NCBI GenBank assembly: GCA_965199685.1
Contig: OZ241323.1
Span: 90,619-154,618 of the forward strand
Length of the DNA: 64,000 bases
Source: an uncultured candidatus Porisulfidus sp.
Lineage (GTDB): Bacteria > Pseudomonadota > Gammaproteobacteria > Poriferisulfidales > Oxydemutatoraceae
Direction of reading: 5' to 3'
In this document: one piece after another, positions 19,066 to 27,695 of the stretch
How the letters are laid out: every line of letters starts with the position of its first letter
Position numbering within the stretch: position 1 is the first letter of the stretch
Notes under the pieces: model-generated
What the model was told of the DNA's origin: nothing
The model's database searches: none
The model's input: the letters and a program-made list of their open reading frames with translations, nothing else
Position numbers and translations under genes: made by a program

Positions 19066-19420
19066 ATGGGACTGTTGAGAAAGTATTCTTGAGCCGTAGG
19101 GGAGGGCTAACATGCCCTCCCGAAACGCGATGCGCTTGCACAAGTAGAATCGCCGATTGAACCAGTAGGTCAATCGGCGTGACATTGTTCAGAACCTTAA
19201 CAACCACCCCGTCAGGCTTCGCCTGCCACCCCTCCACAGGAGGGGAATGTACTAATGCAGACACTTTTTCAACAGCCCGATGTTAGCCCTCCCCTACAGT
19301 TGGTTACCATAAGTTTAATGGCGCAAGCGGTTACGTTTGAGCCAGTAGGTTAATCGGCAATTTAATAAGTCTGCCCCTACAGGGGGTTGAGGGGAATTAA
19401 CTGATGCAGACACAACGCGT
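19066..19420. repeat. MITE/REP-like elements (long ~210-bp variant)
   Basis: GGGACTGTTGAGAAAGT..hairpin..ACTTTTTCAACAGCCCG. Same as 34225..34436. Confidence 0.65.
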
Positions 19421-19479
19421 TAGGGTAGACATGCAAGTCTGCCCCTACTGGTGTAGGTTACGTTGCGATTCTGATGGGT

Positions 19480-19508
19480 TTGACACCTTGAAGGTGCGGT
19501 CTTATGCT
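19480..19508 (+). promoter_or_regulatory. Candidate sigma70 promoter (TTGACA-17-TATGCT) heading a conserved ~160-nt leader of the long-form genes
   Basis: Same promoter and leader repeated at 23616..23644, ~27500, ~28960 and ~34670 upstream of each long-form paralog. Confidence 0.5.
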
Positions 19509-19667
19509 GTTATTATGTGTGGAAATTAATAGCTTTCGGGTTGCTAGAACCTATAAGCTGGGCAAGATTTTGAGAAATGCAATTTTAGAGTGACCGAATA
19601 GACCATAGAAGTACGGTGATCTCAAGCGAGTAGTGATTGCTAAAATCATATGTTTAATGGAGGAAAA

Positions 19668-20534
19668 ATGAACAGAGAAAACATGATGGCCGATATACAA
19701 AAAGACTGGGATGAAAACCCTCACTGGGAAAACATCAAACGCACCTGCGGTGTGGCAGATGTCGCCCGCTTGAGTGGTTCGCTACATCAAGCGTATGCTG
19801 ATGCGCGTTTGGGGTTGGAGAAATTATGGAACTTGTTAAAGGAAGGATCCAAAACAAACGGAGTTGTCAGGCTGTCTTTGATTACCATTATTTTGACTTT
19901 GGTCGTAGCGATAGGTGGTTGTAGCACTGCTTCCCAATATCAATACAATGAAAGGGAGGAGTATAACGATGAGGAAGGAGTAGAGCAAGACCAGGAAGAG
20001 GAATCTAAGCAGGATCAGAAAGCAGCTGAGCAAGGAGATGCAGCGGCTCAAAAAAAAGATATAGCGGTTTACAAAAACACAAAGTATATAAGTCCAGACG
20101 GTGGATTTGTTATTTGCACTAAATCAGGAATAGAAAAGCTTTATAAGAAAAGGCTCTCTCAAATAGAAAAGGGAGAAGTAATATACACCGGAGTTCCTAG
20201 GGTTCTTGAGCTAGTTTCTAATGAAGAAGGGTGCTATTTTGAAGATAGAACGGTCGTATTTATTAGAATGGCAGAGGAATATGCCTTACCAATTAGAAAA
20301 AGACCAGTTACCCATGAAGAAGGAGAAGAGCCTTGCCCTTGGAATGCACTAGAAAGATGTAAACGAGTTATTGCTCCTGCAGCAACGTATGTCGAAGCTG
20401 AATTTCTATATGACAATGGCAAATGGTATGGAGGCGTATTTATAGAAATGGGATGGAATTTTGAGCTTCTTGATAGGCCAGAGGATACGCAAGCTGGAGA
20501 AGATAGAACTCCCAATAATACTCTATCTCAATAA
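19668..20534 (+). CDS. Membrane-anchored 4-Cys domain protein, long form (family copy L1)
   Basis: RBS GGAGGAAAAATG. Conserved N-terminal ~65-aa cytoplasmic module (MNRENMMADIQKDW..), one TM/lipobox-like segment (LSLITIILTLVVAIGGC), acidic linker, then the same 4-Cys domain as the short forms. ORF track starts at 19650. Confidence 0.7.
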   Translation: MNRENMMADIQKDWDENPHWENIKRTCGVADVARLSGSLHQAYADARLGLEKLWNLLKEGSKTNGVVRLSLITIILTLVVAIGGCSTASQYQYNEREEYNDEEGVEQDQEEESKQDQKAAEQGDAAAQKKDIAVYKNTKYISPDGGFVICTKSGIEKLYKKRLSQIEKGEVIYTGVPRVLELVSNEEGCYFEDRTVVFIRMAEEYALPIRKRPVTHEEGEEPCPWNALERCKRVIAPAATYVEAEFLYDNGKWYGGVFIEMGWNFELLDRPEDTQAGEDRTPNNTLSQ

Positions 20535-20952
20535 CTACCAAACTGCACTTTTAGCTAGCCTTACAGAACTCCAAGAAGCCCTTGATAGGCTAAAAGGTGC
20601 CAAAGCTCAATTCCCCGGACACTGCGTAGCCATGGATACCATCCATCATTTTGCTAAGCAGACGCGCTACTATGTGTTTACTGCGATTGATCACTACAGC
20701 CGTTTCTCCATGGCGATTACCTGCCGACGCACCAGCAGTAAAAATGCTACAGCATTTGCAAAGTGGGTGCATACGGTATTCCCCGGCAACATCTCTCAAG
20801 TACTGACCGATAACGGCAGCGAGTTTCAGGGAGACTTCGATGCTTCTCTACAGCAACAACATATCAAACACTGCTATACTTATCCTCGTTGCCCGAAAAT
20901 GAATGCCATAGACGACTTGTCTAATATGTCATGGCATCGTACAATAAATTGA
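20461..20952 (+). pseudogene. IS481-family transposase internal (DDE core) fragment fused to the 3' end of the long-form gene
   Basis: 20585..20935 matches residues ~185-305 of the full transposase at 40267..41355 (AKAQFPGHCVAMDTIH..TDNGSEF..). It has an internal ~190-bp deletion (..MNAIDD|LSNMSWHRT). Confidence 0.7.
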
Positions 20953-21009
20953 CTATTTGCATCAAATAATATATTCTCTATATTGTTATCCATTAGGAGA
21001 AAAAGTGAA

Positions 21010-25141: not shown

Positions 25142-25690
25142 ATGCTTAACTACTTGTTTTCATTAAATTTTTTTAAAAGCGCTTTACTAGCTCTTTCTCT
25201 TCTACTCTTCTCTCTTAGTGCTATAGCAGAGCATAAAAACACAAGATATAAATACCCAATTGAAAGTGGTGATGGATTTATTATTTGCACCAAAGAAGGA
25301 ATAGAAAAGCTTCATAGGATTCGGCACTCTCAAGTAGAAAATAAAAAAGTAATATACACCGGAACTCCTAGGGTTCTTGAACTCGTTTCTAATGAAGAAG
25401 GGTGCTATTTTGAAAATACAGAGGTCATATTTCATAAAATAGCAGAAGAATATGCCCTACCAATTAGAGAAAGACTAATTTCTCATGAAAATGGAGAAGA
25501 GAATTGCCCTTGGAATGCACTAGAAAGATGCAAGCTAGTTATTGCTCCCGCAGCAACGTATGTAGAGGCTGAATTTTTAGGTGAGGATGGGATCTGGCGT
25601 GGAGGCGCATTTATAGAGATGGGAGGGAATTTTGAGCTTCTTGATAGGCCAGAGGATACGCAGGCTGGAGAACAAGATAGAAACCCCTGA
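25142..25690 (+). CDS. Secreted 4-Cys domain protein, short form (copy S3)
   Basis: Signal peptide MLNYLFSLNFFKSALLALSLLLFSLSAIA plus the domain. Confidence 0.7.
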   Translation: MLNYLFSLNFFKSALLALSLLLFSLSAIAEHKNTRYKYPIESGDGFIICTKEGIEKLHRIRHSQVENKKVIYTGTPRVLELVSNEEGCYFENTEVIFHKIAEEYALPIRERLISHENGEENCPWNALERCKLVIAPAATYVEAEFLGEDGIWRGGAFIEMGGNFELLDRPEDTQAGEQDRNP

Positions 25691-25984
25691 CCTTACCCCA
25701 CTGTGAGGGCCATCACTTAAATGAGAGCTGTATTATAAATCGTCTTTGTTCCTCATACTAATAAAATCTTAAATAAACTAGACTCCGATGTCGCATTTCG
25801 ATATTTGCTAGTTATTCTTCCTAAGTGGCAAATTAGACAAAATCTCATGTTTTTACCTAATCTTAAGTCTTGCCACTAAAAAACCAGCTCCATAGCGTGC
25901 CATTAAGCGACGATCTCTAGTTGAGATGACCTCTACTACCAGCGGATTTTCAACTTGTCTCATAAACACTAAACAAGATCTCCA

Positions 25985-26803
25985 CTATACGATGCGTGTA
26001 GCATATGCTACTGGGGTCATATAATCTAGTGAGCAGTGCGGGCGTTCATGGTTATAGTGGTATCGCCATTGTTCAATAATGTGGCATGCATCAGCAAGGC
26101 TGCGGAACAAGTGCTGATTGAGGCAGTTGTCTCTAAACTTGCCGTTTAAGCTCTCTACAAAGGCATTTTGTGTCGGTTTGCCGGGTTGAATAAAGTGTAG
26201 TTTGACCCCGCTATCCTGTGACCACAGATGCATCTTTTTACTCGTGAACTCAGGTCCGTTATCGCAGACAATGCCTTGCGGACAGGAGTGCTCGGCGATG
26301 AGTTGCTCTAACAGCCTGATCACTTGTTGACTGCCAATCGAAAAACCGATGTATTGACCAACCAGTTCACGACTACAATCGTCCATCACATTGAGTATCC
26401 TAAACGCCCTGCCATCGCTTAACCGATCGCTAACAAAGTCCATTGACCAGCGGCAATTCACCTGTTCCGGCAAGGAATGCGGTTGTCGGGTGCGGATGAG
26501 CTTGTTGCGCTTTCTCTTTGGCACTTGCAGTCCCTCTTCCTTATAGATGCGATAGACCCGCTTTTTATTCACCATCAAGCCTTCTGCTCTGAGCAAATGG
26601 CAGATGAGTAAATAACCATAGCGTGGATATTGGCTTGCCAACTCGCACACGCGACTTCTAATCTCCGCATCATCACGGAGGTGTGCTTGGTAGTGATAAC
26701 TACTACGGCTGATCCCGACTAGCTGGCAACTGCACCTCTCACTTAAATGATGCTGGGTCTTTAAGTCTTGCACAACGCTTTTCTTGCTGGTCGAGGTCAC
26801 CAC
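25985..26803 (-). CDS. IS3-family transposase OrfB (DDE integrase)
   Basis: DDE integrase core (..[12 protein letters not shown].., CDNGPEFTS.., ..[14 protein letters not shown]). Confidence 0.8.
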
Positions 26804-27058
26804 TTTTTTGACAGCACGTCCTTGAGGGCTTTGATTTCAAGGACTTACTCACTGACTACTTTCTTGAGTTGGTTGTTCTCTAATTCAAGGCTCTTTAACC
26901 GCTTTGCCTCATTGACTTCTAGCCTCGCATATCTGCTACGCCAGCTGTAAAAGGTGCCGTGGGCTATACCCAGTTCTCGGCAGATGTCGTCTATCGTGCG
27001 ACCGGCCTCGTGTGATTTGATCGCCCTGATGTTGCTCTTGTGTATATCGTTTCTTCAT
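26797..27058 (-). pseudogene. IS3-family OrfA (HTH); frame broken one codon set after the ATG in both copies
   Basis: ATG at 27058 gives MKKRYTQEQ, then the HTH (IRAIKSHEAGRTIDDICRELGIAHGTFYSWRSRY..) continues in the +1 frame. The same defect is present at 22917. Confidence 0.45.
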
Positions 27059-27109
27059 ATTGAAACCTCCTGTTGTTTACTAATTTAACCGGAAATCTCA
27101 TTTTGTCAT

Positions 27110-27270
27110 GGCCCAGTATAGAGGAGCAAGTAGCACTGCCCCAATATCTATACAAGTCCGTATGAGGTAGTAAGACAATACGAGCAGGATCAGGAATTGA
27201 AGCGATATCGGAGAGCAGCCGAGCAAGGACATGCGGATGCTCAATCTGCACTGTCATCCTATCAATAAAT
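27110..27270 (+). pseudogene. Remnant 3' end of a Sel1-repeat/long-form family gene abutting the IS3-B end
   Basis: ..QYEQDQELKRYREAAEQGHADAQSALSSYQ* matches the C-terminus of 29163..30773 (..KAAAQGHADAQSKLSSYQ*). Identical remnant at 22968..23125. Confidence 0.5.
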
Positions 27271-27695
27271 AGGGGAATTGGGGCTGTTGAAAAGTAGTGT
27301 CATTGCATGAATTTGATGGCGCAAGCGGTTGGGTTTGTGCAATGAGGATATTTTTTCAACAGTACGTATATCAAAATCAATCGGCATAACTCTGTGTAGA
27401 CCCTTGACAACCACCCCGTCAGGCTGCGCCTGCCACCCCTCCACAGGAGGGGAATAGTCTGCCCCTACTGGTGTAGGTTACGTTGTGATTCTGATGGGTT
27501 TGACACCTTGAAGGTGCGGTCTTATGCTGTTATTATGTGTGGAAATTAATAGCTTTCGGGTTGCCAAAACCTATAAGCTGGGCAAGATTTTGAGAAATCC
27601 AATTTTAGAGTGTTAGAGTAGCCGAATAGACCATAGAAGTACGGTGCGCTCAAGCGAGTAGTGATTGCTAAATTCATATGTTAAACGGAGGAAAA

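Follow-up and report, generated by a model that had tools for sequence, protein, structure and literature searches.

Tandem cassettes with a truncated IS481-like element and mosaic genes for exported proteins in an uncultured candidatus Porisulfidus

How did a piece of a transposase gene come to lie behind several members of an uncharacterised gene family, and how was it multiplied there? The question is raised by a 64,000-nucleotide stretch of DNA from an uncultured candidatus Porisulfidus sp. (contig OZ241323.1 of assembly GCA_965199685.1, positions 90,619 to 154,618; hereafter the window), in which a composite unit of about 4 kb, holding a long-form and a short-form gene of the family together with pieces of insertion sequences (IS) of the IS481 and IS3 types, stands twice head to tail. 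An initial annotation had proposed that the IS481 piece was acquired once and then spread with the surrounding cassette by segmental duplication. Taking the locus as a whole, we consider a fuller history the probable one, made up of an IS481-bounded cassette, a deletion at a microhomology, unequal crossing-over and gene conversion.

The family is represented in the window by ten copies, five long-form (L1-L5) and five short-form genes (S0-S4), each a complete open reading frame (ORF) that has a start codon and an export signal and is preceded by a conserved upstream region. Common to both forms is a C-domain of ~140 residues with four conserved cysteines; the short-form protein is predicted to consist of a signal peptide followed by this domain.

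18383..18958, minus strand: S0, short form, divergently oriented from L1
19668..20534, plus strand: L1, long form in unit 1, with IS fragment
21010..21552, plus strand: S1, short form in unit 1, signal peptide and C-domain
23789..24664, plus strand: L2, long form in unit 2, with IS fragment
25142..25690, plus strand: S2, short form in unit 2
27696..28550, plus strand: L3, long form in the partial third unit, without IS
33579..34118, minus strand: S3, short form, with an IS481 right-end relic at 34195-34204
34861..35727, plus strand: L4, the third long-form gene with an IS fragment
39675..40250, minus strand: S4, short form, with a full IS481 upstream and a left inverted-repeat relic downstream
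43366..44229, plus strand: L5, long form without IS, divergent in sequence (about 78% nucleotide identity)

A 4-kb Unit Is Duplicated Head to Tail

The units were delimited with MAFFT and BLASTN as follows.

19389..23524, plus strand: tandem unit 1, 4136 nt
23525..27455, plus strand: tandem unit 2, 3931 nt, without the 210-nt block present at 23315-23524
27456..28884, plus strand: partial third unit, with leader, L3 and an intact +1-frame tail, and no IS

BLASTN aligns 19389-23314 with 23525-27455 colinearly and head to tail at 92.2% identity over 3949 columns (E=0), and the difference in length between the units comes down to one 210-nt block that ends unit 1, plus indels of 9-15 nt. Every part can be located in both units in the same order: the leader precedes a long-form gene, after which come an IS481-like core fragment and a short-form gene, then a minus-strand IS3 and the 3' remnant of a Sel1 gene. 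Both the tandem duplication and this gene order had been described in the initial annotation and hold, with borders within about 30 nt of those it gave. The leader carries a promoter-like site, TTGACA-17-TATGCT. Unit 2 is followed by the IS-free partial unit, in which 27456-28621 matches 19436-20605 at 90.8% (BLASTN), and then by a fourth leader on an intact Sel1 gene, so that four leaders stand consecutively. A third IS-bearing copy, previously counted among the 4-kb units, is not part of one but sits within a 2.6-kb dispersed duplicon (33540-36136 against 18392-20943, 87%), which ends exactly at the IS right terminus.

Assembly error had been named from the outset as what would undo the tandem reading: a repeat might have been expanded or misjoined, or co-occurring strains combined into a chimera, and several structural variants of the locus do occur at low coverage in the sample (contigs L001, L011, L012 and L013). 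Several indels and differences at 8% of positions separate the units, however, so that neither is a duplicated consensus, and the array recurs on related contigs. The independently assembled L011 carries the end of one unit, two full units, an IS-free long-form gene and then the Sel1 gene, which is the layout of the window with at least three units against two here; L001 also has more than one unit in tandem, together with a stretch 99.8% identical to window positions 43328-45262. An artefact is on these grounds highly improbable, and the duplicated array appears to be real, collapse or expansion by the assembler being unlikely. Copy-number variation from strain to strain is thereby visible within one metagenome.

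L012 and L013 hold other arrangements of the locus. At 5199-8117 of L013 we observed a long form, an IS fragment, a gene of short-form length with a long-form 3' block, a second IS fragment and a short form; the segment made up of domain and IS fragment is therefore repeated in itself.

One Junction Joins Three Long-form Genes to an IS481-like Fragment

The IS481-like sequences to which the following refers are these.

20593..20943, plus strand: fragment 1, with transposase codons 170-282, a 180-nt in-frame deletion and the last 27 nt including the right terminus
24723..25073, plus strand: fragment 2, both breakpoints as in fragment 1
35786..36136, plus strand: fragment 3, both breakpoints as in fragment 1
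40318..41458, minus strand: full-length element of 1141 bp, transposase at 40267-41355, directly upstream of S4
45263..45418, minus strand: 3' relic, with transposase residues about 295-354 and the right end

The 5' junction is nucleotide-identical in the three window copies, GATAGGCTAAA/AGGTGCYAAAGC (...GGCTAAA/AGGTGC...), and the IS-free long-form copies at 28.5 and 44.2 kb read on past the breakpoint as CTAAATAGTA. The full IS reads CGCCAAAGGTGC at the breakpoint position; AAA is present there in both parent sequences, and the junction therefore shows a 3-nt microhomology. The internal deletion is also the same in all three fragments, ATAGACGA-(C/G)-TTGTC, and, taken from the coordinates of the full copy, measures 180 nt (60 codons, in frame) and not the ~190 bp first estimated. 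Nine fragments, from the window and contigs L001, L011 and L013, all begin at transposase residue 170, reading ...GATAGRCTAAAAGGTGC....

The fragment is not found on every long-form gene, as the initial annotation had stated, but on three of the five in the window and nine of 17 across all contigs. Its other observations on the junction are borne out: the long-form copies join the transposase at one and the same nucleotide, no difference between the junctions was found, and the units without transposase sequence part from the others at that point. With the two breakpoints identical in the three window copies and in six more on related contigs, the claim that the fragment was acquired once, and thus had a single origin, is well supported, and the junction would predate this genome.

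These common breakpoints bear equally on the alternative that separate IS481 elements inserted at a hot spot behind each long-form gene and were each truncated later. IS481-type elements can be site-selective, and several different IS481 relics lie in the locus, which would suit such a history; the junction, however, falls in the interior of the IS (codon 170) and not at an IS end, and nine copies have it nucleotide-identical together with an identical second deletion, so that the alternative is effectively refuted. The junction is best read as a deletion at the microhomology, which would have removed the distal tail of the long-form gene, any spacer and the first 169 codons of an IS481 lying downstream. 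The remaining fragment cannot move, because the left end, the helix-turn-helix (HTH) domain and the helix following the catalytic glutamate are missing; it travels with the cassette, both in the tandem units and in the 2.6-kb duplicon. To this extent spread by segmental duplication stands, although simple duplication does not explain the units themselves, the segments of which have diverged unequally (see below).

The homology of the third copy to units 1 and 2 stops exactly at 36136/36137, and the orthologous copy on L013 still precedes a short-form gene. An IS-end-associated rearrangement is implied at this point, which may have been an inversion involving the oppositely oriented full IS at 40318-41458. 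Such an inversion, between the truncated IS of the third copy and the full IS481, would restore the order of truncated IS and short-form gene; the idea is speculative, because a crossover within the last ~27 nt would be needed.

IS481 Ends Bracket the Short-form Genes

The assignment of the full-length element rests on transpos_IS481 as its first NCBIfam match (181 bits, E=3.3e-53, against a curated cut-off of 224), with IS3 second at 111 bits, and its transposase is a single ORF with the Pfam domains HTH_32, rve and rve_3. The terminal inverted repeats, TGAATAATGCCAGATACATATTGGAC on the left and TGTACGATGCCATGACATATTAGAC on the right (reverse complement), are imperfect and require a 1-nt gap, and no direct repeat flanks this copy. 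Its right terminus, ...GGCATCGTACA, is placed about 60 nt upstream of S4. The junction between right end and flank, GCATCGTACA/ATAAATTGAC, occurs in three states: the IS is complete in L012 and truncated in units 1 and 2, while at S0 and S3 a relic of 10-11 nt is left of it. In all three the flank that abuts the terminus is ATAAATTGACTATT.... The window has eight occurrences of the exact right-end 10-mer, where 0.05 would be expected, and each of them falls at one of the homologous positions or at an IS end. We considered whether GCATCGTACA might be a target-site duplication and not the IS terminus, and rejected this, as it pairs at 7/10 positions with the left terminus within the inverted repeat.

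The IS right end is kept upstream of all five short-form genes, two of which also terminate in an IS481 left-end relic.

19035-19044 (right end) and 18372-18389 (left inverted repeat): IS481 relics of S0, the left one supplying the stop codon
39656-39681: left inverted-repeat relic of S4, 26 nt, downstream of the gene and supplying its stop codon

Left inverted-repeat relics such as these, of 18-26 nt, likewise form the stops of two short-form genes on contig L010, at a different chromosomal site. Because a right and a left IS481 end, in direct orientation, enclose the short-form genes, IS481 probably spread the short-form cassette, rather than hitch-hiking with it. This module of IS481 and short-form gene seems to be older than the long-form/IS junction: the IS would not have been recombined onto the long-form gene as a fragment, as had been supposed, but a full IS481-like element would have lain upstream of the short-form gene first.

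The right end may also bear on expression. Immediately before the short-form gene, a promoter-like site, TTGTCT-17-TACAAT, straddles the border between the right end of the IS481 and the adjoining flank (20917-20945 and 25047-25075), and a second, TTGACT-17-TATTCT, lies in the flank and is lost by a 9-nt deletion at the junction of the full IS with S4. The IS481 right end may hence supply promoter elements for the short-form gene.

At 45253-45272 on the minus strand, the terminal 10-mer GCATCGTACA of the 45263-45418 relic is present twice in tandem, the extra copy at 45253-45262. This arrangement is unexplained and could be the trace of a junction of abutted ends or of an end-targeted insertion.

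Long-form Genes Are Chimeric and Have a Displaced Tail

In the long-form protein, a part resembling isocitrate lyase (ICL) is followed by a hydrophobic/transmembrane segment with a lipobox-like IGGC at its end; then come an acidic linker, half of one Sel1 repeat and finally the C-domain. Residues 8-64 resemble the N-terminus of ICL (a weak Pfam ICL match; tblastn 38-46% to genuine ICL genes), and a scan of genome contigs with the long-form protein matched only real isocitrate lyase genes. The first ~65 codons are ICL-like in every long-form gene and in the intact Sel1 gene (starts 19668, 23789, 27696, 29163, 34861 and 43366); a 5' gene fragment has here been reused as the leader of exported proteins.

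29163..30773, plus strand: intact Sel1-repeat gene, with leader, ICL-like N-terminus, transmembrane segment, acidic linker and 11 Sel1 repeats (Pfam E=5.5e-126)

The likeness to this gene extends over the first ~650 nt of the long forms at 87% (19405-20051 against 28885-29561, 86.7%), and each 4-kb unit looks like a Sel1 gene in which the repeats have been replaced by a C-domain, an IS fragment, a short-form gene and an IS3.

The reading frame that runs out of the long-form stop does join the DDE core of the transposase, as first described; the frame itself represents the ancestral C-terminal tail of the family, displaced by the loss of 2 nt. In the distant homologues P0043, P0049, P0054 and P0048 a helical tail continues in frame past ...(S/T)LSQ (e.g. 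...YQVEFLLALEQELRNALDRIN..., ...GLSMLQ), and a +1 conceptual reading of the long-form 3' end, ...TLSQ/NYQAALLASLTELQEAFDRINSTKEESRVGLSMLQ..., is colinear with the tails of P0043 and P0054 (E=1e-5 and 1e-6, as single comparisons). The 3' flank of S3 retains the tail in frame (CAAAGTACCTACCAA), where all long forms read CAATAACTACCAA, 2 nt shorter. It is because of this longer in-frame version at S3 and the homology to the distant tails that we identify the small ORFs behind the long forms as the displaced tail, to which the IS fragment is fused after 17 codons.

28486-28731: tail ORF behind an IS-free long form, displaced ancestral tail
44168-44482: tail ORF behind an IS-free long form, displaced ancestral tail
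20517..20578, plus strand: invariant 62-nt block, with the stop codon of the long form and tail codons 1-17
24647-24708: further 62-nt block
28533-28594: further 62-nt block
35710-35771: further 62-nt block
44212-44273: further 62-nt block

The 62-nt block is near-identical, and the stop common, in 17 of 17 long-form copies (six sequences), whereas the cores beside it differ by 15-30%; nucleotide diversity is 0.01-0.04 in the block against 0.15-0.29 in the domain core. Given this conservation, programmed +1 recoding at ...TCT CAA TAA C... (within the long-form 3' end ...TCTCAATAAC...) might join the long-form protein to its tail, with the block as signal. The proposal would agree with the homology of the tail to in-frame tails of distant homologues, with a ratio of non-synonymous to synonymous divergence (dN/dS) of 0.19-0.26 in the tail between the L3 and L5 types despite the stop in all copies, and with an invariance in 17 copies that extends to synonymous sites. 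The site CAA-UAA-C is, however, not slippery, and a shift from CAA to AAU allows no re-pairing in the P site. An RNA fold of the block gave no stable structure (z=0.55), the tail ORF has upstream in-frame TTG/ATG codons of its own, and IS sequence replaces the tail after 17 codons in nine of the 17 copies, so that the distal tail must be dispensable. Gene conversion that homogenised the copies recently would account just as well for the invariance, and we regard recoding as very unlikely. The tail could still be translated, or the frameshifted block could equally have been spread recently by conversion, and the block might serve as an anchor for recombination or as a signal for recoding, or it might be a tract that was converted recently.

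The Units Are Mosaics with Diverging Cores

Divergence along units 1 and 2 does not follow a uniform neutral pattern, identity between them ranging from 74 to 100% by segment.

Leader, intergenic DNA and much of the IS3: 95-100% identity
IS481 fragment: 92-97% identity
Two ~400-nt C-domain cores (20089-20489 and 21080-21570): 74-88% identity

This unequal divergence of the segments implies that the units were reshaped after duplication. The leader has a synonymous divergence of 0.04 between the units, the IS fragment 0.16 and the domain core 0.29, and L1 and L2 are 98% identical in their N-terminal part but 81% in the C-domain core. The L1 core is nearest to that of L3 (90%) and not to that of its counterpart L2, and the S2 core is nearest to S4 (95.5%) and then S0 (92%), with S1 at only 82%. 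The four-gamete test fails for 49% of informative site pairs (nine copies), none of 2000 permutations reached the observed value in the PHI test, and the protein alignment has blocks exchanged among long and short forms. The C-domain has a dN/dS of 0.5-1.2, compared with 0.16-0.49 in the leader-encoded part.

One alternative, which is the model of the initial annotation in its literal form, would be a segmental duplication in one step, followed by point mutation and positive selection on the cores, with gene conversion playing no role. The colinear units, the IS breakpoints they have in common and the high dN/dS of the C-domain all agree with it. Simple duplication is nevertheless insufficient, because synonymous divergence is uneven (about 7-fold apart for leader and core within one pair of units), because the nearest relatives of the cores lie outside the partner unit (L1 with L3, S2 with S4) and because the PHI and four-gamete tests indicate pervasive recombination; the IS fragments, moreover, are themselves mosaic, with alleles common to the full copies. 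We therefore hold the one-step history to be improbable. After amplification, it seems, the flanks were homogenised while the cores were shuffled and diversified by gene conversion.

An integron-like or diversity-generating retroelement (DGR)-like system was considered and rejected, since there is no integrase or reverse transcriptase and each cassette has its own upstream region; nor are the substitutions adenine-specific, as in a DGR-like system, but they form blocks common among paralogues.

IS3, Sel1 Remnants and a GC-rich Repeat Complete the Units

21601..23038, minus strand: degenerate IS3 of unit 1, orfA disrupted and orfB frameshifted (coordinates transferred from unit 2)
25739..27179, minus strand: degenerate IS3 of unit 2, orfB (25985-26803) intact, orfA with frameshift and stop
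23039..23127, plus strand: Sel1 3' remnant of unit 1, with linker-like codons, the last half repeat and the stop
27180..27268, plus strand: Sel1 3' remnant of unit 2, with the same parts
23271..23519, plus strand: GC-rich repeat CACCCCGTCAGGCTKCGCCTGCCACCCCTC, two copies, at the unit 1/unit 2 boundary
15252, 19205, 23271, 23490, 27412, 34364, 34577, 39564, 51940 and 52492: copies of the GC-rich repeat

The intact orfB of unit 2 scores 240.7 bits against an IS3 family cut-off of 160, an orfA-like frame upstream of orfB is frameshifted or stopped in both units, and candidate inverted repeats of the element (25739-25758 and 27160-27179) are 80% complementary. The Sel1 remnants retain the last 25 codons and the stop (23050-23127 and 27191-27268), with 68% amino acid identity to the intact Sel1 3' end over 25 codons (tblastn) and 90% over 59 nt including the stop (BLASTN).

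The GC-rich repeat CACCCCGTCAGGCTKCGCCTGCCACCCCTC occurs ten times in the window against none expected. One or two copies stand just upstream of every leader and so mark the unit borders (those at 19205, 27412, 34364 and 34577 precede the other leaders), and an extra copy accounts for the 210-nt difference in unit length. Unequal crossing-over could plausibly have used these repeats, as well as the leader/Sel1 5' regions, as its substrates. The repeat lies within elements of 90-150 nt that resemble repetitive extragenic palindromes or miniature inverted-repeat transposable elements, with many near-identical copies here and on related contigs, and yields spurious ORFs reading ...PPLEGWQAQPDGVV....

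A History of the Locus and What Weighs against It

The history that we favour would begin with the insertion of two IS481-like elements, one upstream of a short-form gene, at a distance of about 60 nt, and the other in the 3' tail of that gene. The resulting IS481-bounded module, to which the observed junctions attest, would have been copied around the locus, although by what mode is suggested only indirectly by the IS ends. Homology indicates that the long-form gene would have arisen by fusion of the 5' part of a Sel1 gene, already provided with its ICL-derived N-terminus, to the mature C-domain. A deletion using the AAA microhomology would next have joined the displaced long-form tail to codon 170 of the IS481 upstream of a neighbouring short-form gene, presumably followed by the second, 180-nt in-frame deletion within the IS; the breakpoints of both can be read directly, their order less so. 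With an IS3 element lodged beside the Sel1 gene remnant, the 4-kb block would have been amplified head to tail by unequal crossing-over between leader/Sel1 5' regions and the GC-rich repeat, and gene conversion among the ten paralogues would have homogenised the flanks and shuffled the C-domain cores (dN/dS near 1). Unable to move, the pieces of IS481 and IS3 are relics that persist because they lie inside the repeat unit.

Several points tell against this account. The evidence for the array comes from assembled contigs; target-site duplications were looked for at the IS481 and IS3 copies and none were found; and the order of events is not uniquely reconstructable from the extant copies. That the homology of the third IS-bearing copy ends exactly at the IS right terminus is not predicted by plain homologous recombination, and suggests a transposase- or IS-end-mediated rearrangement at that site. 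To these must be added the substitution pattern of the fragments, in which pairwise dN/dS is 0.13-0.31 and fragment-private changes are 17 synonymous and 22 non-synonymous (17/39, against 26% synonymous expected, p=0.015), the private class being inflated because only two full-length IS copies served as reference. These values leave room for weak selection on the fragments, which may not be neutral.

Taken further, the low dN/dS and the synonymous excess among private mutations could mean that the chimeric ORF (at least 17 tail codons in frame with the DDE core, 163-173 aa) encodes an expressed and selected protein, i.e. a domesticated truncated transposase such as a transposition inhibitor. 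All three window copies keep the ORF open, its internal deletion is in frame, and the best NCBIfam match of the copy at 20461-20952 is IS481. Two of nine fragments, however, have a common premature stop (K*VHT) and one of nine is frameshifted, and such a protein would lack both the HTH at its N-terminus and the helix that follows the catalytic glutamate. The variable sites of the fragments, moreover, fall into blocks that recur in differing combinations from fragment to fragment and in the two full-length copies, which is what conversion by active IS copies would produce, and the synonymous excess is affected by the inflated private class noted above. Domestication is hence unlikely, and the pattern fits relaxed constraint combined with gene conversion from intact IS copies. 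For annotators, this would mean that neither the 163-173-aa "integrase core" ORFs nor the 81-104-aa ORFs that follow long-form genes should be taken for genes, both being relics.

Setting of the Locus and Distribution of the Family

The window is chromosomal, with a G+C content of 43.6%. Its EF-Tu has its nearest matches among gammaproteobacterial proteins, and the closest EF-G with a name, at 93% identity, is labelled 'MAG: Chromatiales bacterium'; in sister genomes EF-G is 97-100% identical. Two conserved blocks, one at 11.8-17.5 kb with pntAB and a cytochrome c peroxidase-like gene, the other at 53-58 kb with rpsG-fusA-tuf-rplC, enclose a repeat-rich stretch that holds all window members of the family (18-45 kb). 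At 90% identity the family comprises only 32 protein clusters, from this genome and one ENA metagenome assembly, to which the contigs L001, L011, L012 and L013 belong, and 18-45 kb is the only locus of this small uncharacterised family in this gammaproteobacterium. A profile search of 1.8 billion representatives retrieved about 20 distant clusters with the C-domain, among which P0052 combines the C-domain with Sel1 repeats in one protein. The C-domain has no match in Pfam, NCBIfam, PADLOC or among solved folds, PADLOC gave no defence-system match for the family or the neighbouring genes, and scans of the entire window for Rfam families and tRNAs gave no match.

Three paralogous small coiled-coil genes with a weak DUF2730 match (17769-18101, 38928-39251 and 44895-45191, all on the minus strand) each adjoin a family member, and a coiled-coil gene and a short-form gene together form a duplicon at 17688-19026 and 38847-40318. 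Two large TPR-repeat proteins (4724-6784, plus strand; 7572-9833, minus strand) contain arrays of 102-nt repeats; both have as their N-terminus HTH_Tnp_1, the DNA-binding domain of IS3-type OrfA, which makes them another case of fusion to a 5' gene fragment. Large proteins of unknown function at 36853-38835 (plus strand) and 48016-50526 (minus strand) are built on 42-nt and 93-nt tandem repeats, the 42-nt repeat encoding 14 aa (...LSTQTGILLSVD...), and on contig L012 the left end of an IS481 abuts the interior of a repeat protein of the 36853-38835 type. The joining of the ICL N-terminus to Sel1/C-domain proteins and of the IS3 OrfA HTH to TPR proteins is of interest as the making of new genes from 5' fragments.

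Comparison with Known Systems

The duplication itself belongs to a known kind of genome plasticity, driven by repeats and dead insertion sequences. As in IS-associated tandem amplifications, the copies stand head to tail with repeats at the unit borders and IS remnants inside, and copy number varies between strains; unlike in those, the borders here are not intact IS, the units have diverged by 8% and been reshaped by conversion, and the IS pieces are immobile. The locus is in this respect a compact and datable record of IS-bounded spread, microhomology deletion, tandem amplification and gene conversion. What appears to be new, judging from the sequences, is the uncharacterised, fast-evolving exported domain family and its chimeric leaders.

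In Bordetella pertussis, elements of the IS481 family cause rearrangements and have outward-facing promoters that act on neighbouring genes (PMC3053399, PMC6161684). The full-length element described here resembles them in its single-ORF rve/DDE transposase with an N-terminal HTH, its TG...CA inverted repeats and its position directly upstream of a gene, and the predicted promoter-like site TTGTCT-17-TACAAT would correspond to their outward promoters. It differs in scoring 181 bits, below the cut-off of 224, and in the missing target duplication, and most copies here are deletion relics. The placing of short-form genes between IS481 ends in direct orientation, S4 with a full IS and a 26-nt relic and S0 with relics on both sides, recalls a composite transposon, although no copy has two intact IS, movement as a unit is putative, and an array of the form (IS-gene)n would leave the same traces.

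The long forms share their 5' half with Sel1-repeat (SLR) proteins, as represented by the intact gene at 29163-30773 and by the 3' remnant at each unit end, but they hold only half a repeat, and their functional part is the unrelated C-domain.

A dN/dS near 1 combined with heavy recombination usually marks molecules that face hosts, phages or competitors. The locus might be a cassette-diversification system, in which the leader and the 62-nt block serve as anchors, conversion operates among at least ten complete paralogues and selection is diversifying; we put this forward as a possibility that is rather doubtful, and the combined proposition, in which IS481 ends also multiplied the cassettes and give the short-form genes promoter elements, is equally tentative. 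The closest parallels are the families varied by gene conversion, namely Neisseria pilE/pilS, Anaplasma msp2, Borrelia vls and the outer membrane protein (OMP) paralogues of Helicobacter, with which the genes described here have in common a conserved 5' and an invariant 3' region around a mosaic core, an elevated dN/dS and exported products (export being predicted here). No dedicated recombinase and no G-quadruplex (G4) or other recombination signal of the kind known from those families was found at the locus, and in contrast to a single expression site fed by silent, promoterless donors, every copy here is complete. If the proposal were correct, the locus would represent, in a gammaproteobacterium that may be free-living or host-associated, a mechanism resembling antigenic variation but built from expressed, rather than silent, copies.

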